From assembly GCA_029005175.1 (NCBI GenBank), contig JAQXFQ010000030.1:1-48686 (forward strand): 48,686 nt of DNA, given 5' to 3'. This document shows positions 5,602 through 45,923 of this stretch, one piece after another (positions within the stretch are counted from its first letter, which is position 1; each line of letters begins with the position of its first letter). The translations under genes and the position numbers were made by a program. This DNA is from Bacillota bacterium (GTDB lineage: Bacteria; Bacillota; Clostridia; Oscillospirales; Acutalibacteraceae). The notes beneath the pieces were generated by a model. It saw nothing but the letters and a program-made list of their open reading frames with translations, did no database searches and had not been told where the DNA came from.

Positions 5602-5607
5602 AATTAA

Positions 5608-6546: not shown

Positions 6547-6742
6547 TAAATCGTTCCTCCTGATAAACGAGTAATTAAATACAGTTATTTTGGAAATGCT
6601 TTTACGTCAACCTGACAAAACAACATATTAAGTTTGATGCGTATGCTGTTTTACGGATTGATGTATAAACAGTCACCATTCAACCGACAAAATTCATAAA
6701 AAATCTGACGACTGAATGGCAACAGAACTTATTGTAAATAGG

Positions 6743-6967
6743 TTAGATAAGGGTTGTGATGTACTTGGCAAGATCTTCGATTGTGCGGATGTTGACAAGT
6801 TCATCAGTATCGATTTCGATGCCGAATTCATCCTCAAGCTCGCCGATCATTGCAACGATGTCGTAGGAATTCATCTTAAGATCCTTGAGGAACTCCGTTT
6901 CGGGAGTAATCTCACTCTCATCAGCGTCAACATACTCAAGCAGCTTTGTCTTAATTTTCTCAAACAT
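6743..6967 (-). CDS. Acyl carrier protein (74 aa)
   Basis: Carrier-protein fold signature LKDLKMNSYDIVAMIGELEDEFGIEI, with Ser in the position of the DSL phosphopantetheine site. Start taken at MFEKIK, with RBS GAAAGGAGAA 7 nt upstream. The ATG overlaps the ligase stop (ATGTTTGA). Confidence 0.8.
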   Translation of the reverse strand: MFEKIKTKLLEYVDADESEITPETEFLKDLKMNSYDIVAMIGELEDEFGIEIDTDELVNIRTIEDLAKYITTLI

Positions 6968-8669
6968 TTGCGGTTCTCCTTTCAATCATAAACCTTTTGA
7001 TTTTTTTGGTTGTTGTTTTTTCAAATTCAGAATCATAAATAACCACATCAGTAATTCTCTTAAATGTAGCGATCTTTGAATTGAATTTGGCTATATCATT
7101 CATCAGATATGCATATCTGTCCTCAACGCCATTGGCTGTGAGGAATTCATCGTCGAGATAACACGCGGCGTAGATGCCTGTATTTGCCTCGTCTGCATAA
7201 ACGACTACTTCCTTAATATATGCAATCTGAGCAACCAACATTTCTTCAATTTCCTCCGGGAATACATTTTTTCCGTTGGGCAGTATAATCAGATTTTTTA
7301 CTCTGCCGGAAATATAGAGGAAGTTATCTTTGTCTAAATAACCTATGTCGCCTGTTTTAAACCAGCCGTCTTCTGTAAACACAGCTTTTGTGCTCGCCTC
7401 GTCCTTGTAGTATCCAAGCATAACATTGTCGCCCTTTACAAGGATTTCACCGTATCCGTTTCTATCTGGGTTATCAATGCGAACGGTAGTTCCGGGAACG
7501 ACCATACCCACAGAGCCTACCTTTTTAAATCTGGTGCAGTTTGCGGCTACCAGCGGTGAACATTCAGTGATACCGTAGCCCTCTACTATATCAATTCCGT
7601 AAGAATCAAGAGTTTTGATAATCTCCTTGGAAAGCGGAGCACCGCCGCAGACTATTTGATTAATGTTGCCGCCGAATTTGTCGAGGATAGGTTTAAAGAA
7701 AAGTCTGCGCTTATCAATACCGATTTTTCTGATAAGGTTGCTGAATTTAGCACCGTAGCGAAGATGATTTGAAAGACCTGCTTTTTCAGATTCCACATTA
7801 ATTTTTCTTACCATTGTTTCAAGGAAAATCGGAACCATGAGTGAAAATGTCGGCTTGAATCTCTCGAAGTTTTGCATAACGTGCTTGAGGTCATCATTAA
7901 AGCATACTGTGGTACCGAGATAGAGCGCACAGAGAAGGTGAGTGTTTTTTTCGTAAGTGTGGTTAATAGGAAGTACGGAAAGAGTATTTTCACCCGGGCG
8001 AATCAATTTCATTGAGCTGTAAACAGTAGCGCACACGTTTTTATGTGAAAGCATAACGCCCTTGTTTGCGCCTGTTGTACCCGATGTAAACACGATTTCG
8101 CTCATGATTTCAGGATTAATTTCCGCGTCAATAAACGATCTGTCGCCGTTGTTGACAAGCTCTTGACCTTTTGCTATCACATCGGTAAAAGACAGGCAGC
8201 CTTCAGCTTCATAATCAAAGCCTTCCTTAGCTCTCATAACAATGCAGTATTTAACATTTGGGCATTGCTCCAATGCCTGCTTTATCTTTTTATACATTTT
8301 AAACGAGCAGAAAATAGCTGCACATTCGCTGATGTTTATCTGCTTTGCAAGTGTATCAGGCTGGAGTTCCTTATCAAGAGGCACAGCAACACCGGTACCG
8401 TTTACAATACCGAAATATGCTTCCATCCACTCTATTGAAGTTTCTCCTATAACGGCAATCTGCTTGCCCTTAAGTCCCATGGCAATCAGTTGAGTGCCGA
8501 TAGCGTTGGATCTTTCAAGCATCTGGTTAAAGGTTACAGTTTCAGTCTCTGTTTTGCTGACGATCTGCTCAAACAAAACTGAATCCCCGTAAAGCTTCGC
8601 GCCCCGCTCCACCAGTTCCTTTAAATCTTTCATGCGATCGGCTTTAAAAAGTTTCTTTTTGTAATTCAC
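6960..8669 (-). CDS. AMP-dependent acyl ligase (long-chain fatty-acid-CoA/ACP ligase-like, ANL superfamily)
   Basis: Core motifs FTSGTTGANKGVMLSH, GYGITE, TGDIGYLD and GRVKNLIILPNGKNVFP. GTG start with RBS GGAAGGAGA 8 nt upstream. Confidence 0.9.
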   Translation of the reverse strand: MNYKKKLFKADRMKDLKELVERGAKLYGDSVLFEQIVSKTETETVTFNQMLERSNAIGTQLIAMGLKGKQIAVIGETSIEWMEAYFGIVNGTGVAVPLDKELQPDTLAKQINISECAAIFCSFKMYKKIKQALEQCPNVKYCIVMRAKEGFDYEAEGCLSFTDVIAKGQELVNNGDRSFIDAEINPEIMSEIVFTSGTTGANKGVMLSHKNVCATVYSSMKLIRPGENTLSVLPINHTYEKNTHLLCALYLGTTVCFNDDLKHVMQNFERFKPTFSLMVPIFLETMVRKINVESEKAGLSNHLRYGAKFSNLIRKIGIDKRRLFFKPILDKFGGNINQIVCGGAPLSKEIIKTLDSYGIDIVEGYGITECSPLVAANCTRFKKVGSVGMVVPGTTVRIDNPDRNGYGEILVKGDNVMLGYYKDEASTKAVFTEDGWFKTGDIGYLDKDNFLYISGRVKNLIILPNGKNVFPEEIEEMLVAQIAYIKEVVVYADEANTGIYAACYLDDEFLTANGVEDRYAYLMNDIAKFNSKIATFKRITDVVIYDSEFEKTTTKKIKRFMIERRTANV

Positions 8670-9044
8670 TTAATAAATCTCCTTCCAATGCGTCTCCCAT
8701 AAAAAGCAAACGCTTTGCACATGTATAAAAGCTTCATAATAGATTCACCACCAAATTATACAATAAAATCGGCTTATTGTCACTTGATAGATATTACAAA
8801 ATAATAAAAAAATTTTCACGGAAAACTCTACAAAATTAACCAAATATGTAAATGTTGTTCGTTAGGAAAATATAGCATATATATTAACGAACTGAGAATA
8901 AAAAGGAAACAAAAGATAAGGACAGGGGCAATAGCTTTAGGTGTTTTGCGTTTTCATATTTTTTTAGCTAAGGTTGGTCATAATAAGAGCTTTTGCTAAT
9001 AAATATTATAATATAAAACAAGATACAGACGAGGAGTGTAAATT

Positions 9045-9821
9045 TTGATTCATATGCGTACAAGACAATGGTTTTTACTATTTGCCTCAATAGTTCTTAT
9101 AATATCGCTTTTTTTAACCAATAATATATATAAAGCTGAATTACTTGCCGGAAATTCTGAAACAATAACACTGGAGAAGAGCTGTAAAGTTGTTATACTT
9201 GACGCAGGTCATGGAGGCTTTGACGGCGGGGCTATAGGGATTAACGGCACTATAGAAAAGGATATAAATCTTACCATATCCCTTAAGCTGCGTGACATGC
9301 TTGAAGATGCAGGGTACGCCGTAATAATGACGCGTGACACCGACACAGCATTAGAAAATGAAGGTGACAGCTCCACCCGTCAGAAAAAAGTAAGTGATAT
9401 GCGCAATCGCCTTAATCTGACAAAGTTGTATCCCAACGCCATGCTTATAAGTATACATCAAAACAAGCTGGAAGGCAATCAAAAAGTGTTCGGAGGACAG
9501 ATTTTTTACTCTCCAAATAATGGAAACAGCAAGCTGCTGGCGCAATTGATACAGGATGAATTCAACACATATATACAGCCTCAGAAAAAAAGAGAAATAG
9601 TAAAAACAGGAAAGAACCTTTATCTGTTTTATAATGCAAAAAATGTCGCTGTGTTGTGCGAATGCGGCTTTCTATCCAATCCTGAAGAAGAGGCTTTGCT
9701 TAATACCGACGAATATCAAAAGAAGATTGCATATTGCATTTTCAGCGGTATTATGGTATATAATGAAAGTAATACATCTGCCGATAATACGACGGCGGAA
9801 TACATCGGGTCACAAAAATAA
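9045..9821 (+). CDS. cwlD: N-acetylmuramoyl-L-alanine amidase, CwlD-like (sporulation/germination type)
   Basis: N-terminal TM, then Amidase_3 motifs ILDAGHGGFDGGAIG and CECGFLSNPEE; size ~258 aa. TTG start 8 nt after GAGGAG. Confidence 0.75.
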   Translation: MIHMRTRQWFLLFASIVLIISLFLTNNIYKAELLAGNSETITLEKSCKVVILDAGHGGFDGGAIGINGTIEKDINLTISLKLRDMLEDAGYAVIMTRDTDTALENEGDSSTRQKKVSDMRNRLNLTKLYPNAMLISIHQNKLEGNQKVFGGQIFYSPNNGNSKLLAQLIQDEFNTYIQPQKKREIVKTGKNLYLFYNAKNVAVLCECGFLSNPEEEALLNTDEYQKKIAYCIFSGIMVYNESNTSADNTTAEYIGSQK

Positions 9822-9890
9822 AATACAGAGCAGCTATTATTGCTGATTGTGTGGAGCACTGAAATAAGCTGAATGAAAGGTTGTTAAAAA

Positions 9891-11276
9891 ATGGCGAAGT
9901 CCAAAAATGTATATGTATGTACCGAATGCGGCTACGAATCAAGCAAATGGTATGGCAAGTGTCCGTCGTGCGGCGAGTGGAATACGCTGGAAGAGCAAAT
10001 CCGCGAAGCTGTCACATACTCTTCCTCACCAAGAAATAACTCAGTTTCAACGCTGTCATCGTATGAAGCTCCGATACAGATAAAGGATATAAGCACCTCG
10101 GACGAGGAACGATGCAGCACAGGTATGGATGAATTGAACCGCGTGCTTGGCGGCGGCATAGTTAAAGGCTCGCTTATATTGCTAGGTGGCGATCCCGGCA
10201 TAGGCAAATCCACAATACTCATGCAGATTTGCGAATATCTCGGTCGCACGATGAAAATATTATATGTATCGGGTGAGGAATCCCGCCGTCAGCTTAAGCT
10301 GAGAGCGATACGACTTGGGGTAAACAGCGAGAATTTGTATGTTATGACCGAAACTGATGTTGAGCGCGTAATAGAGAATATCAAGGCAATGAAGCCCGAT
10401 ATAGTTATGATAGATTCTATTCAAACTATGAACCTGAAAGAATTGTCATCTTCCCCCGGCAGCGTGGTTCAGGTCAGAGAATGCACCAATGCCATCATGC
10501 GCACTATAAAGGCTCTCGATATTCCCACCATAATTGTAGGGCATGTCAATAAGGACGGCGCAATCGCAGGACCAAAGGTACTTGAGCATGTAGTGGACGC
10601 TGTGCTGTATTTTGAGGGCGACCGACATCTTTCATACAGAATCCTGCGCGCTGTCAAAAATCGCTACGGCTCTACCAATGAAATCGGCGTCTTTGAGATG
10701 CAGGAAGACGGTTTGTGTGAGGTAGAAAATCCCTCTATGATGCTGCTGTCAGGCAGACCTGTAAATGTATCAGGAACCTGTGTGGCATGCGCCATGGAGG
10801 GTACACGCCCGATTTTTGCCGAGGTGCAGGGGTTGGCAGCATCGTCAGGCTTCGGAAATCCCAGGCGTATGTCAACGGGATTTGATATTAACCGCATGAA
10901 CCTTATCATAGCTGTACTTGAAAAGCGCTCCGGGTATTTTTTTGCCAATATGGATACCTATATAAATATAGTCGGCGGCATGAGGCTTTTTGAACCGGCA
11001 GTCGACCTCGCCGTTGCTGTGGCGCTGGTCAGCAGTCTGAAAGACGTTTGCGTGGGCGAGGATTTAATAGCCTTCGGCGAAATAGGACTGGCTGGTGAGC
11101 TTCGCGCGGTCAACCACGCGGAGGCGCGTATTCGCGAGGCGTCGCGGCTGGGATTCAAACGCTGCATAATGCCATATCATAACCTGCAGTCGCTCAAAAA
11201 TTCTCCCAAGGATTATGGCATTCAACTGTTAGGAGTGCGCTCAGTCAGAGAAGCCATCGAGGCTTTGAGTAATTAA
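9891..11276 (+). CDS. radA: DNA repair protein RadA/Sms
   Basis: N-terminal zinc ribbon YVCTECGYESSKWYGKCPSCGEWNTL, Walker A GGDPGIGKST, KNRYG motif, Lon-like C-terminal domain. Confidence 0.95.
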   Translation: MAKSKNVYVCTECGYESSKWYGKCPSCGEWNTLEEQIREAVTYSSSPRNNSVSTLSSYEAPIQIKDISTSDEERCSTGMDELNRVLGGGIVKGSLILLGGDPGIGKSTILMQICEYLGRTMKILYVSGEESRRQLKLRAIRLGVNSENLYVMTETDVERVIENIKAMKPDIVMIDSIQTMNLKELSSSPGSVVQVRECTNAIMRTIKALDIPTIIVGHVNKDGAIAGPKVLEHVVDAVLYFEGDRHLSYRILRAVKNRYGSTNEIGVFEMQEDGLCEVENPSMMLLSGRPVNVSGTCVACAMEGTRPIFAEVQGLAASSGFGNPRRMSTGFDINRMNLIIAVLEKRSGYFFANMDTYINIVGGMRLFEPAVDLAVAVALVSSLKDVCVGEDLIAFGEIGLAGELRAVNHAEARIREASRLGFKRCIMPYHNLQSLKNSPKDYGIQLLGVRSVREAIEALSN

Positions 11277-11637: not shown

Positions 11638-12219
11638 ATGGCAAAGCTCTATTTTAAATACGGAGCAATGGGCAGTTCAAAAACGGCGCAGGCTCTGATA
11701 ACAAAATTCAATTATGAGGAGCGCGGCATGAAAGTCTGGCTTATCAAGCCGTCAATTGATGACCGCGATGGAATTGACGAGGTTTCATCGCGCATAGGAC
11801 TGCATCAGAAATGCCGCACGATTTACCCCGATGACAGAATATGGGAGCTTTTTGGTCGGCAAAGCGGCATTGATGTGATTATCACGGATGAATGTCAGTT
11901 TTTTACTCCCGAGCAAATCGACGATCTCAGGCGCATTGTGGATGAATGTAATCTGCCTGTGCTGTGCTTCGGTCTGCGCACTGATTTTCGGACGCGTTTA
12001 TTTCCCGGAAGTGCCAGACTGTTTGAGGTGGCGGATTCAATAACCGAAATCAAGACAATTTGCGACTGCGGCTCTAAAGCCATTGTAAACGCGCGAATTT
12101 CACCCGACGGAAGAATAATTACACACGGCGAACAGGTAATGGTGGGCGGCAACGAAAGCTACAAAGCGATGTGCCACGCCTGCTGGAAGAAGAAAATTAA
12201 GGAACAGGGAGGATTATAA
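11638..12219 (+). CDS. tdk: Thymidine kinase
   Basis: [16 protein letters not shown]..., [16 protein letters not shown] and a C-terminal Cys cluster; close to E. coli-type Tdk as I remember it. RBS GGAGGGG. Confidence 0.9.
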
Positions 12220-12224
12220 AAAAT

Positions 12225-12875
12225 ATGGAATACACGGATATTTTGAAAATGGTGGATCATACACTGCTCAGGCAGGACGCGACATGGGATGAAATCAAGG
12301 CGATTTGCGATGATGGAATAAAATATTCCACCGCGTCAGTCTGCATTCCCGCAAGCTATGTTAAGCAAGTGGCGGAATATACAGGCGGCAGGGTGGCGAT
12401 CTGCACGGTAATAGGCTTCCCGAACGGATATTCCACCACAGCCGCTAAGGTATTCGAGACGCAGGACGCAATTGCGAACGGCGCGGACGAAATCGACATG
12501 GTGATAAATATCGGCTGGCTCAAGGATAGAAAATATTATGACATTCTTTCCGAAATCAAAGCGGTTAAAGCGGCGTGCGGCGAAAAAATTCTCAAGGTGA
12601 TAATAGAAACCTGCCTGCTCACCGATGAGGAAAAAATAAAAATGTGTGAGATAGTCTCGCAGTCGGGTGCGGATTTCATCAAGACCTCCACAGGCTTCTC
12701 AACAGGCGGTGCAACAGCAGATGATATTAAATTATTCGCCCGACATGTCGCACCTCACGTCAAAATCAAAGCTGCGGGAGGGATAAGCTCGCTGACAGAC
12801 GCGGAAAATTTTGTCAATCTCGGTGCGTCAAGACTTGGCACGAGCCGAATTGTAAAGATAGTTAAAAATTTATAA
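12225..12875 (+). CDS. deoC: Deoxyribose-phosphate aldolase
   Basis: DHTLL near the N-terminus; Schiff-base Lys context [14 protein letters not shown]; size 216 aa. Confidence 0.9.
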
Positions 12876-12903
12876 AAACAATTAAAGAGAGGAAAGATGA
12901 TCT

Positions 12904-13635
12904 ATGTCCGAAAAAAATTATCCCACACCCCACATCAATGCCACACCCGACGATTTTGCGCGCACGGTATTAATGCCGGGCGATCCTCTCCGCGCTAAGT
13001 TCATAGCGGAGAATTACTTGAAAGACGCGGTGCTGGTCAACAACGTCCGCGGAATCCAAGGCTACACAGGCACCTATAACGGCACTAAAGTTTCGGTGAT
13101 GGCGAGCGGAATGGGCATGCCGTCAATCGGAATTTACAGTTATGAGCTTTACAATTTCTTCGGCGTGGAAAATATAATCCGCGTGGGTACGGCGGGGTCA
13201 ATCAACCCGAATGTCAAGGTACGCGACATTGTAATAGCAATGGGCGCATGCACCAACTCAAATTACGCTTCGCAGTACAAACTGCCCGGGATATTTGCGC
13301 CGATTGCCGACTATGAGCTGATGAAAACGGCTATCGAAAACGCCGAAAAGCACAGCGCGAATTATCACGTCGGCAACTGCCTTTCCTCCGATACCTTCTA
13401 CTGTGATGACCCTACAGCAACTGAAAAATGGGCGAAAATGGGCGTTATGTGCATAGAAATGGAGGCTGCGGCGCTCTATATGAATGCGGCGAGATGCGGC
13501 AAAAAGGCTCTCGGAATATTCACAATTTCCGACCACATTCTGACGGGTGAGGCAACCAATGCAGAGGAAAGGCAGACTTCATTCACACAGATGATGGAAA
13601 TTGCTCTGGATACAGCAATTCAGATGGAAAAATAA
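12904..13635 (+). CDS. deoD: Purine nucleoside phosphorylase, DeoD type
   Basis: TPHINA...VLMPGDPLRAKFIAENYL...VNNVRGIQGYTGTYNG...MGMPS, very similar to E. coli DeoD as remembered. Confidence 0.92.
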   Translation: MSEKNYPTPHINATPDDFARTVLMPGDPLRAKFIAENYLKDAVLVNNVRGIQGYTGTYNGTKVSVMASGMGMPSIGIYSYELYNFFGVENIIRVGTAGSINPNVKVRDIVIAMGACTNSNYASQYKLPGIFAPIADYELMKTAIENAEKHSANYHVGNCLSSDTFYCDDPTATEKWAKMGVMCIEMEAAALYMNAARCGKKALGIFTISDHILTGEATNAEERQTSFTQMMEIALDTAIQMEK

Positions 13636-13653
13636 GTTGAAAGGCGTGGTAAT

Positions 13654-15213
13654 TTGGACAGCATAAAACGTGTGTTTTTGATAGTTCTTGACAGTCTGGG
13701 AGCGGGAGAATTGCCCGACGCCTCGGACTACGGTGACAAAGGCTCAAATACCCTGCGCAGTATTTCGCAGTCGCCTCAGATTTTCATTCCAAACCTACGC
13801 AAGCTCGGCATAGGCAATATTGACGGGCTGGGGTTTCTAGGCACTAATGAAAATCAACAGGCGGCGGTTTGCAAGCTTGGTGAGTTGTCAAAGGGGAAGG
13901 ATTCTACAATAGGTCACTGGGAAATTTCGGGGATTATTTCCGACAGTCCTCTGCCGACATTTCCGAATGGCTTCCCGCAGGAAATTATTGACAAGTTCAG
14001 CGAGTTGACGGGCAGGGGAGTGCTCTGCAACAAGCCATATTCAGGCACGCAGGTTATCGCCGACTACGGTGAGCAGCACGAGCGCACGGGAGATTTAATT
14101 GTCTACACCTCAGCCGACAGCGTGTTTCAGATAGCGGCGCATGAAAATATCGTTCCGATTGAAAAGCTGTATGAATACTGCGAAATCGCCCGCCAAATCC
14201 TTGTCGGAAAGTATGGAGTGGGGCGAGTTATTGCGCGCCCGTTCGTTGGTTCGGCAGGCAATTACACCCGAACCTCTCGTCGTCACGATTTTTCAATAGA
14301 GCCGCCGCAGAAAACAATTTTGGACTCATTGAAAGCTGCCGGGCGGGATGTTATCTCAGTTGGCAAAATCAAGGATTTGTTTGCTGAGCGAGGCCTGACT
14401 GAGATGCTTGCTACAAAGAACAATGCTGACGGAATGGAAAAAACAGCAGAAGCCGCCGACAGGGATTTCAACGGCTTGTGCTTTGTGAATCTGGTGGATT
14501 TCGACATGGTTTACGGTCATCGCAACAATGTTGACGGATACGCCGCAGCCCTGTCTGAGTTTGACAAGTGGCTGGGTGAATTTTTGCCGAAGCTGCGGGA
14601 TGACGATATTTTGATGATTACAGCCGACCACGGCTGTGACCCGGGAGATATAAGCACCGACCACACCAGAGAATATATTCCGCTGATGATTTACGGCAAG
14701 CTTGTTTCACCGATAAATTTAGGCATTCGCCAAACTTTCTCGGACATTGCCGCGACTTTGGCGGAAATTTTCGGTGTAAATTACACCTGCGCGGGTGAGA
14801 GCATGCTTGGAGAACTTACCGACATGAAGCAGCATCTGTGTAATCAGGCAAAACGCGCTTTGCAAAAATCCTACTCGCCATATTCAGGCTACCGTGTGGG
14901 CGCAGCACTTCTTACCGGGAGCGGTAAAATTTATACAGGCTGCAATATCGAAAATTCCGCGTTTTCGCCCACTATATGTGCGGAACGCACTGCGTTTGCC
15001 AAGGCAGTCAGCGAGGGTGAAAAAAGTTTCAGAATGATAGCCGTGGCGGGCGGCAAAGGCGGCATAGTAACGGATATTTTCCCGCCGTGCGGTGTGTGTC
15101 GGCAGGTAATGCGTGAATTTTGCACTCAGAATTTTATTATTTTGCTGGCAAAAGACTGCGGTTACGAGGAATACACCCTGTCTCAGCTTCTCCCGAACAG
15201 TTTTTCAATTTAA
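13654..15213 (+). CDS. deoB: Fusion protein: phosphopentomutase (aa 1-390) + cytidine deaminase (aa 391-519)
   Basis: N-terminal part has VFLIVLDSLGAGELPDA..GSNTL and ITADHGCDP. C-terminal part has YSPYSGYRVGAALL, CAERTA and PCGVCRQVMREF (zinc ligands of Cdd). It is one uninterrupted frame. Confidence 0.85.
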   Translation: MDSIKRVFLIVLDSLGAGELPDASDYGDKGSNTLRSISQSPQIFIPNLRKLGIGNIDGLGFLGTNENQQAAVCKLGELSKGKDSTIGHWEISGIISDSPLPTFPNGFPQEIIDKFSELTGRGVLCNKPYSGTQVIADYGEQHERTGDLIVYTSADSVFQIAAHENIVPIEKLYEYCEIARQILVGKYGVGRVIARPFVGSAGNYTRTSRRHDFSIEPPQKTILDSLKAAGRDVISVGKIKDLFAERGLTEMLATKNNADGMEKTAEAADRDFNGLCFVNLVDFDMVYGHRNNVDGYAAALSEFDKWLGEFLPKLRDDDILMITADHGCDPGDISTDHTREYIPLMIYGKLVSPINLGIRQTFSDIAATLAEIFGVNYTCAGESMLGELTDMKQHLCNQAKRALQKSYSPYSGYRVGAALLTGSGKIYTGCNIENSAFSPTICAERTAFAKAVSEGEKSFRMIAVAGGKGGIVTDIFPPCGVCRQVMREFCTQNFIILLAKDCGYEEYTLSQLLPNSFSI

Positions 15214-19433: not shown

Positions 19434-20618
19434 TTAATTCTTAATGCCTTTTTCGTCGTTAAGAAAAAGCTTGATTCTTCTCAAAGCCTCATTTATGTGG
19501 CTCATCGAGTAAGCATATGACACGCGTATGTAGCCTTCGCCGCATTCACCGAATGCCGTGCCCGGTACTACTGCAACATGTCGATGGTATAACAGCTTTT
19601 CACAGAATTCCTCAGATGTCATGCCGGTGTTTTTGATGCATGGGAAGATGTAGAACGCTCCCTCAGGCTCAAAGCAATCAAAGCCAAGCTCGCGGAATCC
19701 GCTGACGATCAACTTTCTGCGCAGGTCATATTCATCTCGCATTTTGTCTATGTCGTCATCACCGTTGCGCAAAGCTTCTATCGCCGCATATTGAGCGGTT
19801 GTAGGAGCACACATTATCGCATACTGGTGAATTTTAGTCATAATAGAGATTATAGGTTCGGGTCCCAACGCATAGCCAAGTCGCCAGCCGGTCATGGCAT
19901 AGGCCTTGGAAAAGCCGTTTACTACAATTGTGCGCTCCTTCATTCCGTCGATTTCCGCAAAAGAAACGTGAGGGATACCATTATATGTCAGTTCACAGTA
20001 AATTTCATCTGCCAACACCATTATATTTGTATCTCGGATAACCTCGGCGATTGCCTCCAAATCTTCACGCCTCATAACTCCACCCGTGGGATTATTTGGA
20101 TAGGGCAGAATGAGCAGCTTGGTCTTGTCGGTAATTTTTTTGCGCAGCTCATCGGGGGTAAGTCGAAATCCATTTTCCTGCTTAGTAACAATCGTTACAA
20201 CCTTTCCGCCTATAAGCTCAGCAATCGGAGCGTAGCAGACAAAGCTTGGCTGAGGGACAAGAACCTCATCACCCGGGGAAATAAGCGCACGCATAGCAAG
20301 GTCAATAGCCTCAGAACCGCCGACGGTGACAACTACATCGCTTTTATAGTTATATTCCAAACGAAATTTTCTTTTGTAATAATCGCAGATTTCTCGGCAA
20401 AGCGCAGTAAAGCCTTTGTTTGGCGAATATCTCGTTCGTCCGTTTTGAAGCGATTCAATTCCGGCATCCCTTATGTGCCATGGTGTAGGGAAGTCAGGCT
20501 CGCCGACCGAAAGTGAAATTACATCGTCCATTTCAGCCGCTATGTCAAAAAACTTTCGTATGCCTGACGGAGGAATATCACGAGCCGTCCGGTTAAGCAA
20601 TGACTGATAATCCATCAC
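19434..20618 (-). CDS. Class I/II pyridoxal-phosphate-dependent aminotransferase
   Basis: LSVGEPDFPTP, YPNNPTGG and NGFSKAYAMTGWRLGY (PLP-Lys context). Confidence 0.88.
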   Translation of the reverse strand: MMDYQSLLNRTARDIPPSGIRKFFDIAAEMDDVISLSVGEPDFPTPWHIRDAGIESLQNGRTRYSPNKGFTALCREICDYYKRKFRLEYNYKSDVVVTVGGSEAIDLAMRALISPGDEVLVPQPSFVCYAPIAELIGGKVVTIVTKQENGFRLTPDELRKKITDKTKLLILPYPNNPTGGVMRREDLEAIAEVIRDTNIMVLADEIYCELTYNGIPHVSFAEIDGMKERTIVVNGFSKAYAMTGWRLGYALGPEPIISIMTKIHQYAIMCAPTTAQYAAIEALRNGDDDIDKMRDEYDLRRKLIVSGFRELGFDCFEPEGAFYIFPCIKNTGMTSEEFCEKLLYHRHVAVVPGTAFGECGEGYIRVSYAYSMSHINEALRRIKLFLNDEKGIKN

Positions 20619-32262: not shown

Positions 32263-33237
32263 ATGCGCATTGATTACATGAATGAATCACCGATGATATT
32301 CCGTGAATACTTCGGTTACATGGAAACTATTAAAGGCAAATCAGCGAAAACTGTTGAAGGTTATTTTTTTGATTTGCGTTCATTTTTTCGCTATATAAAG
32401 CTTTCCCGCGGTTTGGTGGACTCAGATTCTAAATTTGAAGAGATTTCAATTCTCGATGTTGACTTAAATTTGATTGAATCAGTTCATCTGACGGATGTTT
32501 TTGAATTTTTGAATTATGCCGCGTCAGTCCGCAGCAACAACAATAATACACGTTCACGAAAATGCTCGTCATTGAGGTCGTTTTATCATTATTTGTATTC
32601 TACCACAGGTCAGATTAAACACAATCCCGTTCAGGAACTCAGCAATCCTAAAATCCCAAAAAAACTTCCAAAGTATCTGGACTTAGAGCAAAGCATTGAA
32701 TTGCTTCATGCAGTTGACGGCAAATTTAAAGAACGCGATTATTGTATTCTAACGCTGTTTCTCAACTGCGGAATGCGGCTTTCTGAGCTGGTTGGAATAA
32801 ATCTAAGCGACATTCGGGCGGATAATTCTCTGCGGATTACAGGTAAAGGCAACAAGCAGCGCATTGTTTATCTTAATGAAGCATGTATAAATGCCATCAA
32901 CGCCTATAAACGCGTCAGACCGGTTGAAGGTGTAATTGATCGTGACGCACTTTTTATCAGTCAGCAGCTTAAAAGAATAAGTCCTAAAACAGTGCAATAT
33001 TTAGTTAAAAAATATCTCGGAAAAATCAATTTGAACGATGGTTATTCCACTCACAAGCTGCGTCATACCGCTGCTACATTGATGTATCAGCAAGGCGGCG
33101 TCGATACCCGTGTATTAAAGGATATATTAGGTCATGAAAATATGAACACCACTGAAATTTACACTCATCTGTCAAATGAGCAGATAAAAAAAGCTATAAA
33201 TTCAAACCCGCTTGCTAAGCTCGACATAAAAAAATAA
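32263..33237 (+). CDS. Tyrosine site-specific recombinase, XerC/XerD family
   Basis: N-terminal SAM-like domain (KTVEGYFFDLRSFFRYI). Catalytic residues lie in GMRLSEL, HKLRHTAAT and GHENMNTTEIYTH. Confidence 0.88.
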   Translation: MRIDYMNESPMIFREYFGYMETIKGKSAKTVEGYFFDLRSFFRYIKLSRGLVDSDSKFEEISILDVDLNLIESVHLTDVFEFLNYAASVRSNNNNTRSRKCSSLRSFYHYLYSTTGQIKHNPVQELSNPKIPKKLPKYLDLEQSIELLHAVDGKFKERDYCILTLFLNCGMRLSELVGINLSDIRADNSLRITGKGNKQRIVYLNEACINAINAYKRVRPVEGVIDRDALFISQQLKRISPKTVQYLVKKYLGKINLNDGYSTHKLRHTAATLMYQQGGVDTRVLKDILGHENMNTTEIYTHLSNEQIKKAINSNPLAKLDIKK

Positions 33238-33308: not shown

Positions 33309-35363
33309 TTATTCAGCATCTTCTGCAACAGCTTCATCATCAGCAGCCTCTGCGACCTCTGCAGCTTCTGCAGATTCAGCCTGAGCCTTGAGAACTTCCT
33401 TGATTGAAAGGCTTACATGCTTATTCTCAAAGTCAATGTTTGTGATAGCAGCTGTAACAACATCGCCAACCTTAACTACATCTGTCGGCTTCTCAACATG
33501 ATCAAGGCTGAGCTGGCTGATGTGGATAAGACCGTCAAGACCCGGCAGAATATTGACAAATGCGCCAAAGCTGGGTGTACCGACAACCTTAGCCTGAATA
33601 ACTGTTCCAATCGGATAACTATTCTTGAGGATTTCCCAAGGATTATCCTCAGCTTTCTTGTAACCGAGAGAAATTGTCTTCTTATCCTTTTTAACGTCCT
33701 TAACTCTTACTTCAACGACATCGCCGATAGAAAGAACATCCTTAGGATCCTTAATCTTATCCCATGAAAGCTCAGACTTGTGAATCATGCCGTCAACAGG
33801 ACCGAGGTTAACGAATGCGCCGTAGCTTGTAAGAGATTTAACAACGCCTGTGTAGGTCTTGCCGGGCTCGATTTCATCCCAGAATTCTTTCTCAGCAAGC
33901 TTCTTGATAGAGCCGATAGCTCTGCCTCTGCCGCCTGTGATGACTTCGATGATAACGAACTTTACCTTTTTCTTGAGAAGACTCTCGATAGGCTCTTTGG
34001 GTTTAAGCATGCACTGAGAAGCAGGAATAAATACAGAAACGCTGTCGCAAGCAACAAGTACGCCACCCTTGATAACCTGAGTTACAACGCCCTCAAATAC
34101 TACGGGTTCCTTTTCCTCTGTAACAGTTTCTTCTGTTGTCTCAGCGTCTTCATCATCGTCGCGTCTTCTTCTTCTGGTTGTAACCTTAGGAGAAGCAGCA
34201 ACCATCTTATCCCAAGTCTTTCTGGATTCAAGAATCTTCTTGGAGAGATAGATATAGCCGTCCTGGTCATTGACCTTGAGGATCATAAGCTCAAGCTCAT
34301 CGCCGACCTTTACAAGGTCTTCTGTTTTTGCGTTGGGATCGTCTGTGAGTTCTTTGAGTTCAACGATACCGGACTGTTTTCTTCCGACGTCTACGTAAAC
34401 CTCAGTTGGTGTAATGCCAACGACAGTACCTGTAACTACCTTTCCATTTGTATTTGAATTCTTGAAAGACTCCTCAAGCATAGCTTCAAAGCTTTCTGTG
34501 TTCTGAATTTCGCTCATTGTATATAGGACCTCCTTAATTATGTCAGCCGGTGTAGATGCACCAGCCGTAACACCGATGTTATGTGCCGCACGCACATCAT
34601 CAATAGGTAAATCCGCAGCGGTTTGTATTAAGATGCTTTTACACTTACTCTGACATATGTGGAAAAGCTTCGCGGTATTGGAACTGTTTGTCCCGCCTAT
34701 GATGATCATAAGATCGCATTTTGCCGACAGCTCTGCGGCTTCCTGCTGTCGACTTTGTGTCGCATTACATATTGTATCAAATAATGTTGCATTTGTACAG
34801 TCTTTTTTTAGAATTTTCAAACATTTTTTCCATAATTCCGTATTAAAAGTTGTCTGAGCAACAACAGATACAGAATTTTCTTTTAATTTGGGGTGGATTT
34901 TCAGCAAATCAGCCAAATCAGCATCATCTCTGAATGTGTACACCACACCGTTGCAGTGTCCTTTAATGCCGAGCACCTCCGGGTGTTCGGCGTCGCCTGC
35001 AATTAATATTATATCACCTTTTTCTGCCGCTTTGGTTACTATACTATGAATTTTTGCGACAAAAGGGCAGGTTGCATCCTGAATTTTTATGTTTTTTTTG
35101 TTAAGCTCGTTATAAACAGACAGCGGAACGCCATGTGAGCGAATTACCAGCACACTGTCCTGCGGAACTTCGTCCGGGGTTTCGGCAATCACCACTCCCC
35201 TGTCCGCCAGTTGATTAACGACCTGCGCGTTATGAATTATAGGTCCGAGAGTGCAGACCTTTTCCCCACTGTCCACCAAAGAATACACAAGCTCAATTGC
35301 CCTGTTTACTCCGAAGCAAAAGCCGGCCGATTTTGCAAGATAAATATTTTTCAAAATTATCAC
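33309..35363 (-). CDS. ispH: Bifunctional 4-hydroxy-3-methylbut-2-enyl diphosphate reductase (IspH) / ribosomal protein S1-domain protein
   Basis: N-terminal AKSAGFCFGVNRAIE and IspH Cys ligands. C-terminal part has four S1-type OB repeats (e.g. GTVVGITPTEVYVDVG, YTGVVKSLTSYGAFVNLG). Arg/Asp linker and acidic tail. Confidence 0.9.
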   Translation of the reverse strand: MIILKNIYLAKSAGFCFGVNRAIELVYSLVDSGEKVCTLGPIIHNAQVVNQLADRGVVIAETPDEVPQDSVLVIRSHGVPLSVYNELNKKNIKIQDATCPFVAKIHSIVTKAAEKGDIILIAGDAEHPEVLGIKGHCNGVVYTFRDDADLADLLKIHPKLKENSVSVVAQTTFNTELWKKCLKILKKDCTNATLFDTICNATQSRQQEAAELSAKCDLMIIIGGTNSSNTAKLFHICQSKCKSILIQTAADLPIDDVRAAHNIGVTAGASTPADIIKEVLYTMSEIQNTESFEAMLEESFKNSNTNGKVVTGTVVGITPTEVYVDVGRKQSGIVELKELTDDPNAKTEDLVKVGDELELMILKVNDQDGYIYLSKKILESRKTWDKMVAASPKVTTRRRRRDDDEDAETTEETVTEEKEPVVFEGVVTQVIKGGVLVACDSVSVFIPASQCMLKPKEPIESLLKKKVKFVIIEVITGGRGRAIGSIKKLAEKEFWDEIEPGKTYTGVVKSLTSYGAFVNLGPVDGMIHKSELSWDKIKDPKDVLSIGDVVEVRVKDVKKDKKTISLGYKKAEDNPWEILKNSYPIGTVIQAKVVGTPSFGAFVNILPGLDGLIHISQLSLDHVEKPTDVVKVGDVVTAAITNIDFENKHVSLSIKEVLKAQAESAEAAEVAEAADDEAVAEDAE

Positions 35364-41465: not shown

Positions 41466-41626
41466 AGACAGAATTTCATGCACATCGCCATACGGACACC
41501 AGATTGACTGCGGCGCACAAGACTAACCGCTTAATGCTGCTCGGTTCCCCGCCTGACATGGTTCACAGCGCCCTGTCGCACAGGATCCGGCATCCGCATG
41601 TCGATATGCACGAATATATTCTGTCT
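41466..41626 (-). ncRNA. ffs: Signal recognition particle RNA (4.5S/scRNA-type, ~161 nt)
   Basis: The minus strand reads ...CCAUGUCAGGCGGGGAACCGAGCAGCAUUAAGCGG..., the conserved domain IV motif with a GGAA tetraloop. The ends AGACAGAAU/AUUCUGUCU pair to close one long helix. Its position upstream of dnaX matches the Bacillus synteny. Confidence 0.85.
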
Positions 41627-41835: not shown

Positions 41836-42711
41836 TTACACCAAGTCAACAACCAATTCAGATTTTATTCCCGAAATGCTGAGTATATTTTCACTCTCGG
41901 GACTGTCACAGGGTTCGCAGCTCTCTCCGTCTTTCTGGCAGCATATACTGCATCCGCGTCCCTTATTGAGCAGTCGGAAATCAGAATCTTCGGGAATGTG
42001 TACAATAGACGCTGCGTTCCACTGGTTTAAATCCAGCCTTCCGTGAATCGCATCGACAGTAATGTCGTAATCCGTTTTAGCGGTGAATTCAAGGCTTCCT
42101 ATACAATTAACAACAGTTACATTTTCGGCGTCGCCGTCATATTCCAGACGTTCGAGTACCAGATTGACCAGATGCAGTTCCTTTGCGGATGCTTCAAGTT
42201 CGCAATGCTTAGTGTGATTTATAGGAAGTGTAATTGTAACAGAGAGCATGTCGGTTATCTCAAACTTGTTGAGTTCATTTTTCTTGTCACATTCAACATC
42301 CAGCTTGTTTCGGTTTTCGTTCAGCTTTATTTTGAAGAGTGAGCCAATATTTTCAAGTGTTTCTGAGGCGAGGTCAATGTGCAGTTTTTCATCTGTGCCC
42401 GAACATATTGTGATAGTTTTTGCGTTGCCCAAATGAATATCAAAATGCTTGCTGCAATCAATATCGTAAATTGTCTCGCTGTGGTAAGTGGGCTTTCTGA
42501 TTTTGTTTTGCGGCATTGCCTGTGAAACCAACTCATCTAAAGTTGTCTTGAATATCTCCGCAAGAATCATCATGTTCTCAATGTCGGGCAAACCCTTGCC
42601 TGTTTCCCATTTTGTGATTGCCTGTCGGGATACGCCGATCTTTTCAGCAAGCTGCTCCTGAGAAAGCCCCTCGTTTTTTCTTATTTCTTTCAATTTCTGA
42701 CCAAAATCCAT
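41836..42711 (-). CDS. XRE-family HTH regulator with ~220-aa C-terminal beta-rich domain (possibly DUF4097-like) and a Cys-rich tail
   Basis: N-terminus: FGQKLKEIRKNEGLSQEQLAEKIGVSRQAITKWETGKGLPDIENMMILAEIF. C-terminal tail: GRGCSICCQKDGESCEPC. Confidence 0.8.
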   Translation of the reverse strand: MDFGQKLKEIRKNEGLSQEQLAEKIGVSRQAITKWETGKGLPDIENMMILAEIFKTTLDELVSQAMPQNKIRKPTYHSETIYDIDCSKHFDIHLGNAKTITICSGTDEKLHIDLASETLENIGSLFKIKLNENRNKLDVECDKKNELNKFEITDMLSVTITLPINHTKHCELEASAKELHLVNLVLERLEYDGDAENVTVVNCIGSLEFTAKTDYDITVDAIHGRLDLNQWNAASIVHIPEDSDFRLLNKGRGCSICCQKDGESCEPCDSPESENILSISGIKSELVVDLV

Positions 42712-42980
42712 AATGTTTTAATCTCCAATCTTCTAAAAAATTTATTCCTTTTTGTAACGATTTTTTGTACGGTCACTCGACCGTCGGGATGTTATGATTA
42801 TAGCATCCGGCAAGAAAATCCACTACCAACATAGCATTACATTTACAGAAAATTTATGCTACTCAGCGTAGCATTGGGCGCCGGCTTTACAAAATAGAAA
42901 CTTATTCCTCATAATACAACAACCACACACACTTTTGCCATGCAAGCCAAGTGTGCGTGATTGTGAATATTTATATTAAA

Positions 42981-44444
42981 TCAAAAATTATCTGAAACAA
43001 TAAATGACGTGTGCTTCAATTTATCTGCCAATTCCATGCGCCTTGGAGTGATTATTTTTCTTTTGCCGGTGCCGTTAAATAATATTTCGACTTTTTTTGA
43101 AAAATTAACGCTGTCTGAGTATTCCTCAATCAAAAATTCCGCCGAATATTTGTTCAATATTCGGAATGTGGTCATCATTCCTATTCCGCTGCCGCCGTCG
43201 TTGATATGAGTAGTTATTCGCTTGCTTCCAATATTTTTAAGCACTTCTATGTCGAAATTTTCGCCGCTGTCGTGTATAGTGATAATGTATATTGAATCTA
43301 CAGCACTTATACTTGCCATTACAAATTTATTAGAGCATTTTTTCGTGGATATTATTGCATTTTCTATCAAATCTGCCAGCAGTGTATTTAAATCATCCTT
43401 GTCAATCACATTTTCGACCATATAATTAACATCTGCTGACAAACATAAATCAAACCTCACACCGAACTCGGCGGCTTTTTGCTGCATATAAAATATTATA
43501 GCGTCTGTAGAGACTATTCCGACAGATGGTTGTTTTTTCTGAGTTAATTCATAATTTCTTACGGAATTCATATGCCCATCACAGATACTTTCGAGTTGCT
43601 TGAGAATATCTGATATTTCAGAACTGCCGCCGCTTTCGGAGATATGTTTTTTTACTGCCATTATCATGGCGGGAATCAGCTTGTTATCTCTGTGAATAAT
43701 GCCTGATAAATTTTCATTGTCTGCCTGCAGCGATTTTATAAGCTCATCTTTTTCTTTTATGGAATGTTCTAGCAACTCTATTTCTTGATTTTTCGTTTGT
43801 TCAATATACAATTTGGTTATTTGGTTTTTGCGCCAAAAAAATAAAGTGATACTGCAGACCAAACTCAAAAAAATAGGAATAACGTACACAATGTTTGAGT
43901 ATCTAGTCATGCTAAGCATAACGACAACCAAAAATATAATTACTGAAATATAAATTCCAACATCGCTCGAGCCGGCATTTATTAAATGTAAAAGACCTCT
44001 TTTCATTCGCTTTGACTTTATAGAAAGCATAGTGAATATAATCTGTGCCGCCGCAATAGAGGAAAATAATACTAATTTATCAGATTTATATTCAAAATTC
44101 ATATTAAACAGATTGAATACAAACGATAAGGGAATACATGCCAGCATAAGTGAAGCATAACTGAATCCAAACGACAATACAGAAGAAATAAAGGAGTGAC
44201 TTAATTTTATATGATAAATCAAGCAATAAACCAGTGGAAAGGCAGTATGAATTAATGTTATATGTATGAAACTAAAGTGCAATTTGCAAATACATGCTAT
44301 GAACCCCATAATAATAGAAACTGCCGTTCCCATGATAAATTCATTCCTGTTAATATCATTGCTCTGTGATTTTATATATATATAAAACGCACAGAAAAAC
44401 GTAGCGCAATATTTAATAGCTGATGTAATCAATTGTATCACCAT
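42981..44444 (-). CDS. Sensor histidine kinase, AgrC-like (about 7 TM + GHKL ATPase)
   Basis: About seven hydrophobic segments in the first 210 aa, then a coiled-coil linker. H-box GIIHRDNKLIPAM, N-box LLADLIENAI, G1 IHDSGENF, G2 DGGSGIGMM. No obvious SD before the ATG. Confidence 0.8.
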   Translation of the reverse strand: MVIQLITSAIKYCATFFCAFYIYIKSQSNDINRNEFIMGTAVSIIMGFIACICKLHFSFIHITLIHTAFPLVYCLIYHIKLSHSFISSVLSFGFSYASLMLACIPLSFVFNLFNMNFEYKSDKLVLFSSIAAAQIIFTMLSIKSKRMKRGLLHLINAGSSDVGIYISVIIFLVVVMLSMTRYSNIVYVIPIFLSLVCSITLFFWRKNQITKLYIEQTKNQEIELLEHSIKEKDELIKSLQADNENLSGIIHRDNKLIPAMIMAVKKHISESGGSSEISDILKQLESICDGHMNSVRNYELTQKKQPSVGIVSTDAIIFYMQQKAAEFGVRFDLCLSADVNYMVENVIDKDDLNTLLADLIENAIISTKKCSNKFVMASISAVDSIYIITIHDSGENFDIEVLKNIGSKRITTHINDGGSGIGMMTTFRILNKYSAEFLIEEYSDSVNFSKKVEILFNGTGKRKIITPRRMELADKLKHTSFIVSDNF

Positions 44445-44477
44445 TTAAATTTAAATAAAAAATATTTTGCTGTCAAT

Positions 44478-45266
44478 TCAATAATCATTTTTTATCTTGT
44501 TGGCATAATAACATATAAATTCCGTAAGGGTAGGAACGCCTTTCTTTGAACTTATCTTAGCTGTATAGTGAGTAAGCAGATCGGTTATATCCGCTGTGCT
44601 CCATGCACGGCAGATCGCGTTTTGCATGGCGCGCTCCACGCTGCTTTCGGTTTTACCGTATTTCTGCCCTATCAGCGTGCAGACATTCTGTATCGGCTGT
44701 TTTATAAACATCAAAATGGCGTCGACCAGATACTGATAGCCAACTGCTTTGGGACTTATTGAAACATTATCCAACTCAGTGCATATTCTCTTGATTATCC
44801 TGTTTTCTTTTTCCTGCGGTGTTTCATTAACCACATTGATGTGACTACAGACATTTGCCTTGCGGTTGTTTATGACTGATGACATCATAGTCAGAAAATC
44901 AATTACACTTGCAGTGGAATAGCCCTCCTGGTGCTTATACATTATAAAATCCGCGCCGAGCTGCCTGGCATAATCATATGTTGTCGAACTGGAATTGTTG
45001 GTAGTAATTAATATGAATGGAGGCGGATTGAGTGATAATTGCCTTAATTCTTTCAAAAACAGCAGCCCGTTTCCCGAACCGTAATGCAGTTCTAAATCCA
45101 AAATAACGACATCAGGCAGATAATCCATTACATACTCGATTGCCTTTGATGAACTGTTGGTAGACTTGATAAGGGTTATATTTTCAACTCTGTTTATAAA
45201 ATTTTCAAATTCCTGACACACTGAAGCATCGTCTTCCACTAAAATTACAGATAATTTATTATTCAC
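44478..45266 (-). CDS. Response regulator with Spo0A-type C-terminal DNA-binding domain (Spo0A paralog-like)
   Basis: Receiver: VILVEDD...VVILDLEL...ILITTNN...FIMYK. C-terminus: VGYQYLVDAILMF...IGQKYGKTESSVERAMQNAICRAWS...KKGVPTLTEFICYYANKIK, which aligns with B. subtilis Spo0A-C as I remember it ([25 protein letters not shown]...KPTNSEFIAMVADKL). GTG start 5 nt after GGGGTGA. Confidence 0.8.
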   Translation of the reverse strand: MNNKLSVILVEDDASVCQEFENFINRVENITLIKSTNSSSKAIEYVMDYLPDVVILDLELHYGSGNGLLFLKELRQLSLNPPPFILITTNNSSSTTYDYARQLGADFIMYKHQEGYSTASVIDFLTMMSSVINNRKANVCSHINVVNETPQEKENRIIKRICTELDNVSISPKAVGYQYLVDAILMFIKQPIQNVCTLIGQKYGKTESSVERAMQNAICRAWSTADITDLLTHYTAKISSKKGVPTLTEFICYYANKIKNDY

Positions 45267-45287
45267 AAAATTCACCCCATTAATCAA

Positions 45288-45316
45288 ATAATACCATAAA
45301 ATATACTCAAAAGCAA
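45288..45316 (-). promoter_or_regulatory. Putative promoter of the regulator-kinase operon (TTGCTT-17 nt-TATTAT)
   Basis: Hexamers read directly from the minus strand. Confidence 0.45.
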
Positions 45317-45376
45317 TAAATAAACCAACTGAAAGCAACTATTTTAATATCAGAAACTTATATAATGAAAATTATG

Positions 45377-45440: not shown

Positions 45441-45923
45441 TTGAATGTACCTAGAATCATAAGAAATATTTCATGCGCAATTTCAGCGGTAATGTGTGCT
45501 GCGTTGATATTTGTATTCGGTCTGATGCCGCTGATTGGTTATGAAGTATGTCCTATAAAGACCGACGATGCCCGAAGTGTTTATTCCGGCGGCAGTGTGG
45601 CATTTGTGCATGAAATTGACCCGGCTAAATTGAAAAAGGGAGATGTTGCAGTGTATTACAGCGGTAAAAACGCGATAGGCGTTAAGGTTGTAACCAGCGA
45701 CAAAAAGTCTCGGCAAATCTATGCACAGGCGGAAAATGACACAACCATTGAACTTAGCTACCGTAAAATCAGCGGTAAGGGAACATCTTTTTCCATTCCG
45801 TTTTTTGGCAATTACGCCGATTGGCTGGTAAACGGCAGTGGCTTACTAGTCAGCGTAATCATGCTTGGCACAATGTTTTTAACATTCGCCGTATCAGCTA
45901 TATTAACTAAAGATGAAGATTAA
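45441..45923 (+). CDS. SipW/S26-type signal-peptidase-like membrane protein, apparently lacking catalytic Ser/His
   Basis: Has the N-terminal TM, beta-core and C-terminal TM architecture of SipW-like peptidases (GYEV...GGSVAFVHEIDPAKLKKGDVAVYY...IPFFGNYADWL). KTDDARS replaces SGSMEP, and there is no His where SipW has VTHRIV. TTG start 8 nt after AAAGGAGA. Confidence 0.6.
   Translation: MNVPRIIRNISCAISAVMCAALIFVFGLMPLIGYEVCPIKTDDARSVYSGGSVAFVHEIDPAKLKKGDVAVYYSGKNAIGVKVVTSDKKSRQIYAQAENDTTIELSYRKISGKGTSFSIPFFGNYADWLVNGSGLLVSVIMLGTMFLTFAVSAILTKDED

Follow-up and report, generated by a model that had tools for sequence, protein, structure and literature searches.

The DNA that we analysed, hereafter the window, is a 48,686-nt stretch from a clostridial member of the Bacillota (Acutalibacteraceae; GenBank assembly GCA_029005175.1, contig JAQXFQ010000030.1, positions 1 to 48,686), and our subject is a pair of genes within it that encode a response regulator with the DNA-binding domain of the sporulation regulator Spo0A and a polytopic sensor histidine kinase. 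An earlier examination made without database searches, hereafter the sequence-only reading, had proposed that the regulator is a Spo0A paralogue wired as a classical two-component pair. The core of that proposal is right, and the pair is a member of a widespread and uncharacterised family. A new observation is a conserved repeat, related to the 0A box of Spo0A, that lies upstream of the regulator gene and is probably autoregulatory. We have high confidence that regulator and kinase are cognate partners and that their paralogue family is separate from Spo0A, and we consider it likely that the two genes constitute a self-contained two-component system, belonging to a large uncharacterised family of Clostridia, that is autoregulated through the repeats. 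The two genes are:

44478..45266, minus strand: response regulator gene (receiver plus Spo0A_C; 262 aa from the likely GTG start at 45266)
42981..44444, minus strand: sensor histidine kinase gene (487 aa; seven transmembrane helices at about residues 2-204, a dimerisation and histidine phosphotransfer (DHp) domain with H251, and an ATP-binding domain)

The regulator consists of a receiver fused to a Spo0A-like C-terminal domain (about residues 150-262), as had been recognised without searches. Response_reg (PF00072) matches with 46.8 bits against a Pfam cut-off of 30.2, Spo0A_C (PF08769) matches with 75.2 bits against a cut-off of 25 and covers model positions 1-104 of 104, and the C-terminal domain aligns with the Spo0A C-domains whose structures are solved (1FC3 and 1LQ1; E 1e-7). 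The two peptides quoted in the sequence-only reading, SSVERAMQNAICRAWS and PTLTEFICYYANKIK, are both found in the protein. The AlphaFold model (predicted local distance difference test score, pLDDT, 87) has a (beta-alpha)5 receiver and a helical C-domain; in a fold search with the full model, receiver-domain matches dominated and nothing was gained on the C-domain. Because the catalytic residues of the receiver (E11/D12, D57, T88 and K111) are all invariant in 20 homologues, the regulator should be phosphorylatable.

The open reading frame (ORF) of the regulator occupies 44478..45338 on the minus strand and, read from its TTG start, would encode 286 aa. The true start is likely to be the GTG at 45266, because GGGGTGA stands just 5' of this codon and because the homologues, which begin M-(D/N)-K-K-L-S, are 261 aa long. 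The TTG start was rejected, since the conserved repeats and the -10 element described below would then fall within the coding region. The gene had earlier been taken to end at 45316, where there is no start codon, the GTG being at 45266 and the TTG at 45338.

Canonical Spo0A is an orphan regulator that is fed by a phosphorelay or by orphan kinases. The paired regulator is like Spo0A (TIGR02875; 1FC3, 1LQ1) in combining a receiver with Spo0A_C and in keeping the VERA...AW core of the recognition helix, but it has its own kinase encoded beside it and falls under the threshold of the NCBIfam Spo0A equivalog model TIGR02875, with 100.1 bits against a cut-off of 200. Paired regulators score 100-122 on this model (the family member at locus L014 scores 122.1), whereas the genuine Spo0A proteins of L016 and L017 reach 305.8 and 298.3 bits, and those of L016, L017 and Monoglobus together span 298-306. 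In L016, a complete 4.2-Mb chromosome, and in L017, the genuine gene lies 2-4 kb from the genome's own copy of the pair:

L016, 12731-13519, minus strand: genuine spo0A (TIGR02875, 306 bits)
L017, 14148-14966, minus strand: genuine spo0A (TIGR02875, 298 bits)

L016 and L017 are related genomes, and the spo0A of L016 has as its neighbour, in place of spoIVB, a gene for an M14 peptidase that contains a PG_binding_1 domain. Genomes with both a genuine Spo0A and the pair include OW818648.1 and Anaerocolumna xylanovorans DSM 12503, and OY776214.1 and OY763424.2 are further complete genomes in which the pair occurs.

The two groups also separate in an identity matrix, with paired regulators 59-88% identical among themselves and genuine Spo0As 47-96% identical among themselves, but only 23-30% identity between the groups, even inside one genome. 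The window regulator is likewise 22-26% identical to the genuine Spo0A proteins annotated in the plasmid collection that we searched, in which the spo0A of Monoglobus is located after spoIVB. Unlike Spo0A, the paired group has two extra residues past the phospho-accepting Asp, D57 (LELHxGxGNG), three extra residues past the conserved Lys, K111 (KHQxxYS), and a deletion of 5-6 residues in the C-domain. Its recognition helix, SSVERAMQNAI, is strictly conserved within the family and differs from the Spo0A helix at several positions. No spoIVB or recN context was found around the window pair, the neighbours of the regulator gene being the kinase gene, an XRE protein gene, the signal recognition particle (SRP) RNA-dnaX segment, udg and addA.

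Since the regulator scores below the TIGR02875 cut-off, since it shares only 23-30% identity with genuine Spo0A and since a genuine spo0A stands beside the pair in two other genomes, by these measures it is a paralogue of Spo0A and not Spo0A itself, as the sequence-only reading had it. An organism's real Spo0A that had come to lie beside a kinase by happenstance would show the same receiver plus Spo0A_C architecture, and in some sources homologues do bear the label 'stage 0 sporulation protein A'. Such a protein should, however, reach the equivalog threshold, resemble other Spo0As more closely and sit in a spoIVB or recN context; moreover, L016 and L017 encode a genuine Spo0A in addition to the orthologue, and the family combines an altered recognition helix with a different associated DNA repeat. 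We therefore regard this explanation as extremely improbable.

The kinase gene follows the regulator gene after a gap of exactly 33 nt on the same, minus, strand, and the seven transmembrane segments, H-box and N, G1 and G2 boxes that had been noticed in its product are all present and intact. Hydropathy gives seven hydrophobic segments and the AlphaFold model (pLDDT 79.7) seven membrane helices; in this model a single helix, residues 184-271, runs continuously from the seventh transmembrane helix into the DHp domain and bears H251 within the motif IIHRDNKLIPAM, with the second DHp helix and then the ATP-binding domain C-terminal to it. H251, N362, D392/G394 (D392xG394) and G417-G418-x-G420-I-G422 are invariant in 21 kinase homologues, and the H-box IIHRDNK of the window kinase corresponds to the family form IIH(K/R)DNKLIPAM. 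On the window protein, HATPase_c_5 (29.4; cut-off 22) and the generic HATPase_c (28.6; cut-off 26.4) score about equally, and they match 17 and 19 of the 21 family members, respectively; the DHp and membrane domains are covered by no Pfam model. Hence, the three profiles singled out in the sequence-only reading (Response_reg, Spo0A_C and HATPase_c_5) all score above their cut-offs. The top Foldseek matches of the predicted cytoplasmic part are ZraS, HK853, CpxA and WalK. The start of the kinase at 44444 is supported by the conservation of residues 8-25 among homologues. Because the extracellular loops are very short, almost absent, and because conserved polar residues (S91, Y96, R146, G150 and S167) lie in or beside the membrane helices, the input of the kinase is probably sensed in or at the membrane.

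To place the pair in its family, we scanned a collection with one genome per species, in which relatives of the regulator occur in at least 320 species at 53-66% identity, 66% being the best identity to the window regulator in that collection; the loci examined are the 80 best of these at least 320 species. Among the more than 1,600 relatives from a word-indexed protein search, hundreds are about 60% identical and have 261 aa, and an exhaustive search among representatives at 50% identity yielded 204 clusters with E <= 1e-30; for Spo0A_C domains of all kinds, there are about 570 representative clusters at E <= 1e-10. The rewiring proposed in the sequence-only reading is thus no singular event: the pair belongs to a family of gut and environmental Clostridia found in at least 320 species. 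The 80 best loci come from Lachnospiraceae (Lachnospira, Roseburia, Agathobacter, Anaerocolumna, Herbinix), from Oscillospiraceae/Ruminococcaceae (Ruminococcus, Sporobacter, Papillibacter, Faecousia and one 'Faecalibacterium'), and from Acutalibacteraceae, Christensenella and others.

In 69 of the 80 loci, the gene that comes next after the regulator gene, in the same orientation, encodes a kinase homologue, and in 7 or 8 of the remaining 11 the contig ends less than 1.4 kb past the regulator gene; the classical adjacent pairing inferred from the window alone is therefore the rule in the family. The same pairing is seen in contigs reached through the protein database. When the neighbouring ORFs of the 80 loci were clustered, no conserved partner besides the kinase emerged, and the other recurrent neighbours, an ABC ATPase in 13 loci, Rrf2 in 10 and a small XRE protein in 8, are a matter of local synteny. 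Since adjacency and co-orientation are kept across varying genomic contexts, the conserved unit is, as far as gene order can tell, the two-gene pair itself, which is the signature of a cognate two-component system. At L015:10989-17019 and L022:1564-4557, two or three tandem seven-helix kinase paralogues stand behind one regulator gene, which suggests diversified sensor input.

The region upstream of the regulator gene is conserved as well. A comparison of the 250-300 nt 5' of the gene across loci brought out the 9-mer AAAAGCAAC, which reads GTTGCTTTT on the coding strand; 40 of the 67 regions compared contain it, whereas shuffled sequences gave 0.3. In most loci, GTTG(C/G)TTT occurs as two or three direct copies at a 10-bp period, with an extended -10-like element just after them. 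The strict tandem pattern finds 74 sites in the 1.25 Mb of the 80 loci, compared with about two in total in shuffles, and 59 of the 74 lie at most 260 nt upstream of the regulator gene and on its strand; several of the others fall in the regulator-kinase gap, where boxes are about threefold enriched. With a single-box pattern applied to 83 upstream regions, at least one box is found in 76, at least two in 65 and at least three in 33. Successive boxes are spaced by 10 bp in 53 cases and by 20 bp in 13, they stand on the strand of the regulator gene far more often than on the opposite one (182 versus 24), and most begin 40-100 nt upstream of the start codon. A scan of metagenome contigs for the triple repeat added at least 12 more cases, 27-130 nt upstream of a family regulator gene. 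The corresponding features of the window, together with the downstream end of the operon, are:

45310..45339, minus strand: three direct repeats (GTTGCTTT at 45339-45332, GTTGGTTT at 45329-45322 and ATTGCTTT at 45317-45310)
45288..45296, minus strand: extended -10-like element TGgTATTAT, 16 nt past the third repeat and 22 nt before the GTG
42919..42964, minus strand: hairpin, 17 nt past the kinase stop codon (minimum free energy -28.9 kcal/mol, z -5.2 from 200 shuffles), followed by UUGUUGUAUUAU

The window array reads GTTGCTTT-ca-GTTGGTTT-attt-ATTGCTTT and is the sole perfect match to GTTGSTTTNNRTTGSTTT in the window, where 0.41 chance matches are expected if up to two mismatches are allowed. 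The -10-like element, which has no good -35 hexamer, is not listed by a simple consensus scan and was read from the sequence; TGnTAtAAT-like elements occur downstream of the repeats in other loci too. The promoter-proximal repeat overlaps a weak -35 (TTGCTT). The hairpin probably marks the end of the two-gene operon.

Written with its flanking T/C, the repeat unit is (T/C)GTTG(C/G)T(TT), to be compared with TGTCGAA for the 0A box. G2 and G5 are kept, C4 is replaced by T, and the 3' half is different, so that the predicted unit shares TGT-G with the 0A box; in addition, direct repeats of about 10 bp that extend to the -35 region are reminiscent of tandem 0A boxes. The Spo0A-box-like promoters suggested in the sequence-only reading thus gain in credibility, since half of the 0A box recurs in this conserved repeat ahead of the operon. 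According to PMC3485338, which refers to the crystal structure of Spo0A on DNA, the bases contacted specifically by Spo0A are G2, C4 and G5, and a mutation at any one of them reduces affinity about tenfold. A partly changed recognition helix, together with a box that keeps two of the three contacted bases, would be expected for a diverged paralogue, and we infer that the repeats are the binding site of the regulator.

In eight loci (L028, L029, L032, L042, L044, L047, L072 and L078), the promoter-proximal unit matches the 0A box exactly (TGTCGAAAA) and stands some 40-70 nt ahead of the regulator start, and L072 has two canonical TGTCGAA boxes further upstream, 10 bp apart. The exact 0A boxes in these eight loci are hints of cross-talk with genuine Spo0A. 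L078 is unusual in other respects also: it has two tandem regulator copies (8997-10786 and 12166-13818) without an adjacent kinase and, just downstream of them on the opposite strand, a gene for a 550-aa flagellin, with a tandem box at 9034-9051 preceding the first copy and a further box pair at 19467-19494.

These features can be assembled into a mechanism. The seven-helix kinase would sense a signal that, given its very short loops, is probably membrane-associated or a small extracellular molecule. It would autophosphorylate at H251 and then phosphorylate its neighbour, the regulator, at D57; the regulator, once phosphorylated, would bind the direct repeats of (T/C)GTTG(C/G)TTT spaced by 10 bp, probably as head-to-tail oligomers. 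As the repeats reach the -35 region of its own promoter, the regulator would control its own operon, and because the proximal repeat lies over the weak -35 of an extended -10 promoter, autoregulation would most likely be positive, activation being the sign that we favour. Presumably the regulator also governs a regulon elsewhere in the genome, and the paralogue system would work in parallel to the sporulation regulator Spo0A. On balance, we lean towards the view that the operon regulates itself through the repeats.

Several observations weigh against this mechanism. A proximal box over the -35 region would suit repression equally well as activation. In three or four loci (L057, L078, L085 and perhaps L083), the regulator gene is truly without an adjacent kinase. 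As for a regulon, the window has one good site, and the 10-kb flanks of the loci offer no target but the operon itself; beyond the regulator promoters already counted, the matches listed in the metagenome scan for the triple repeat are mostly unrelated 10-bp satellites and chance matches, and no usable regulon information was found among them. Finally, another protein, genuine Spo0A included, could be the one that binds the repeats, as true TGTCGAA boxes are present in several arrays.

If genuine Spo0A or some other regulator did bind there, the operon would be an output of the sporulation or transition-state network. The TGT-G shared by the repeat and the 0A box would fit such an arrangement, as would the exact TGTCGAA(AA) promoter-proximal unit in several loci (L029, L032, L047, L072 and L078 among them) and the presence of a genuine spo0A beside the pair in at least two genomes. 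The commonest repeat unit, however, has a T at C4, one of the three bases whose mutation costs Spo0A about tenfold in affinity, and the array follows the paralogue gene through unrelated contexts in many families. Furthermore, carriers include taxa that are usually regarded, by taxon name, as non-sporulating, and the recognition helix of the paralogue is strictly conserved and differs from that of Spo0A. We consider it unlikely that another regulator accounts for the array and prefer the paired regulator as its binder.

The sequence-only reading had also described the kinase as AgrC-like, and this description holds for the layout, in which seven transmembrane helices precede the kinase core (about residues 205-487), but not for the H-box, the partner, the gene neighbourhood or the fold matches. 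Like the AgrC/AgrA systems (HPK10/LytTR, including VirS/VirR), the pair has a polytopic sensor, about 200 residues long and with loops kept to a minimum, and a continuous helix into the kinase core, a kinase gene adjacent to the regulator gene, and direct repeats upstream of its own operon. Unlike them, its regulator has Spo0A_C and not LytTR as output domain, agrB and agrD are missing, the predicted cytoplasmic fold is nearest to HisKA-type kinases, and the regulator gene precedes the kinase gene. The H-box of HPK10 kinases is F-R/K-H-D-x-x-N, and that of the present family, IIH(K/R)DNKLIPAM, is not of this type.

Agr-type peptide quorum sensing, with the kinase detecting a peptide encoded elsewhere, could be argued from the roughly 205 membrane residues with very short loops, the phospho-accepting His near residue 250, the weak HATPase_c_5 match and the self-regulation through direct repeats, which is typical of such circuits. 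Against it stand the H-box and the non-LytTR partner, and AgrC is not among the top 50 Foldseek matches of the cytoplasmic part of the kinase. Nor is any agrB/agrD-like or other peptide-processing gene conserved beside the pair in the 80 loci; no agrB/agrD-like gene lies near the window pair, as had been noted before. No conserved small ORF was found in the 69 regulator-kinase gaps, the gap of the window being only 33 nt, and the idea of a peptide pheromone encoded there was dropped for this reason. All told, we find Agr-type signalling quite improbable and retain the reading of a membrane-sensing kinase with a Spo0A-type partner.

The base composition of the pair raises the question of its origin. 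The G+C content is 33.3% in the kinase gene (34% at third codon positions; 31% in the membrane part) and 39.2% in the regulator gene, compared with 42.9% for the window and 51.4% for pck, the neighbouring housekeeping genes having 47-51%. The contrast between kinase and pck had been estimated earlier from spot counts, correctly in direction but not in the values given, and had been taken as a sign of accessory origin. In 51 of 55 other loci, however, the kinase gene has a lower G+C content than the sequence on either side of it, with a median difference of -5.4 points; its low G+C is therefore a trait of the whole family and nothing specific to the window genome, and it loses its force as a sign of accessory origin.

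Recent acquisition of the pair as an accessory or mobile module in the window genome would agree with the contrast of 33% G+C in the kinase gene to 43% in the window and 47-51% in the housekeeping neighbours, if this were not a property of the gene family. It would also agree with the differing contexts between genomes, even between the closest relatives L001 and L004, and with a relative that carries the pair, with a regulator 89% identical, at another locus. In L004, on the other hand, whose regulator is 84% identical, the pair occupies the same addA-udg locus. No integrase, transposase or repeat flanks the pair, the nearest integrase-family gene being 10 kb off, and our searches of plasmid and phage collections returned no family member but only genuine Spo0A, at 22-29% identity, and Spo0A_C fragments without a receiver. 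Hence, a recent arrival of this kind seems to us a minor possibility.

The pair is flanked in the window by the following features:

45441..45923, plus strand: divergent gene for a 160-aa membrane protein (weak match to SipW-type signal peptidase I, TIGR02228, 24.8 bits, below cut-off)
41836..42711, minus strand: gene for a 291-aa protein with an XRE-type helix-turn-helix (HTH_3, 68.9 bits) and a C-terminal part with a weak match to LiaG, located after the kinase gene
41494-41592, minus strand: bacterial small SRP RNA (Rfam RF00169, 64.6 bits), between the XRE gene and dnaX

The 160-aa and 291-aa proteins recur with the pair, in other arrangements, only in the closest relatives L001 and L004, the XRE protein being absent from the other 80 loci, and the link of either protein to the two-component system is uncertain. 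The SRP RNA is at its usual position upstream of dnaX-ybaB-recR. Elsewhere in the window, a phage-integrase-family tyrosine recombinase (XerC/D-like) is encoded at 32263-33237 on the plus strand, about 10 kb from the pair, and there is no sign that it bounds an island holding the pair. A 684-aa ORF at 33309-35363 on the minus strand joins IspH/LytB to at least three S1 RNA-binding domains, a fusion of the ispH-rpsA type. Finally, a group of genes at 661-8669 on the minus strand, encoding a stand-alone protein with a condensation domain (661-2076), a permease of the MacB/FtsX type and of very large size (2197-5601), an ABC ATPase (5608-6546) and an AMP-binding enzyme (6960-8669), may be a small cluster for lipopeptide or acyl-amino-acid synthesis and export.

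Additional Spo0A-like regulators have been reported before. A 2022 preprint by Galperin et al. (10.1101/2022.02.25.481979) lists 'spo0A paralogs' in Clostridiales, with ten genomes having two copies and Anaerostipes hadrus three, and the second Spo0A of C. thermocellum is 49% identical to B. subtilis Spo0A (PMC4890492). These cases are like ours in that extra Spo0A_C regulators occur where genuine Spo0A is or may be present, but the reports count copies only, and the C. thermocellum copy is much nearer to Spo0A. Three 'Spo0A homologs' are mentioned for Faecalibacterium duncaniae, and Spo0A_C is widely taken as a mark of Spo0A alone (for example, in PMC6136694). In the literature that we searched, counts of 'spo0A paralogs' were found, and no dedicated kinase, family spread or DNA motif was described. 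The Spo0A_C proteins of gut phages (PMC10294663) also place this domain outside the canonical sporulation regulator, but they have neither receiver nor kinase, and the matches on phage contigs are at most 34% identical to the window regulator. ORFs with Spo0A_C only and no receiver appeared in our searches as well, at L084:17958-18410 (minus strand; 150 aa, matching residues 141-260 of the Spo0A model with 159 bits), in the plasmid match H6 (Subdoligranulum) and in the phage matches H15-H18; on the phage-like or 'plasmid' contigs, these Spo0A_C matches share about 34% identity with the C-domain of the window regulator.

A more speculative view, which we put forward tentatively and think doubtful as a whole, is that gut and environmental Clostridia have a second, sporulation-independent circuit of the Spo0A type, in which a dedicated seven-helix kinase acts on a Spo0A paralogue that reads a TGTTG box. 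The difference between TGTTG and TGTCG is small, and therefore the two circuits might overlap at some promoters, which would let a membrane or extracellular cue modulate Spo0A decisions; the paired state may even be nearer to the ancestral one that gave rise to orphan Spo0A.

Surveys of genomes and metagenomes reportedly use spo0A to infer the potential to sporulate. In such surveys, a paralogue family that spans at least 320 species is open to being miscalled as Spo0A, and among the carriers prone to this error are genera named Lachnospira, Agathobacter, Roseburia, Ruminococcus and Faecalibacterium; indeed, the name 'stage 0 sporulation protein A' is already attached to homologues in some database sources. 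In this family, the Spo0A DNA-binding domain has been put to new use in a two-component system of the ordinary kind, whose predicted box is related to the 0A box but distinct from it, and the family thus lends itself as a natural test of how the domain changes its specificity in evolution. With two genes, one promoter and a defined motif, the system is compact and amenable to testing, and it is widespread in abundant gut anaerobes.

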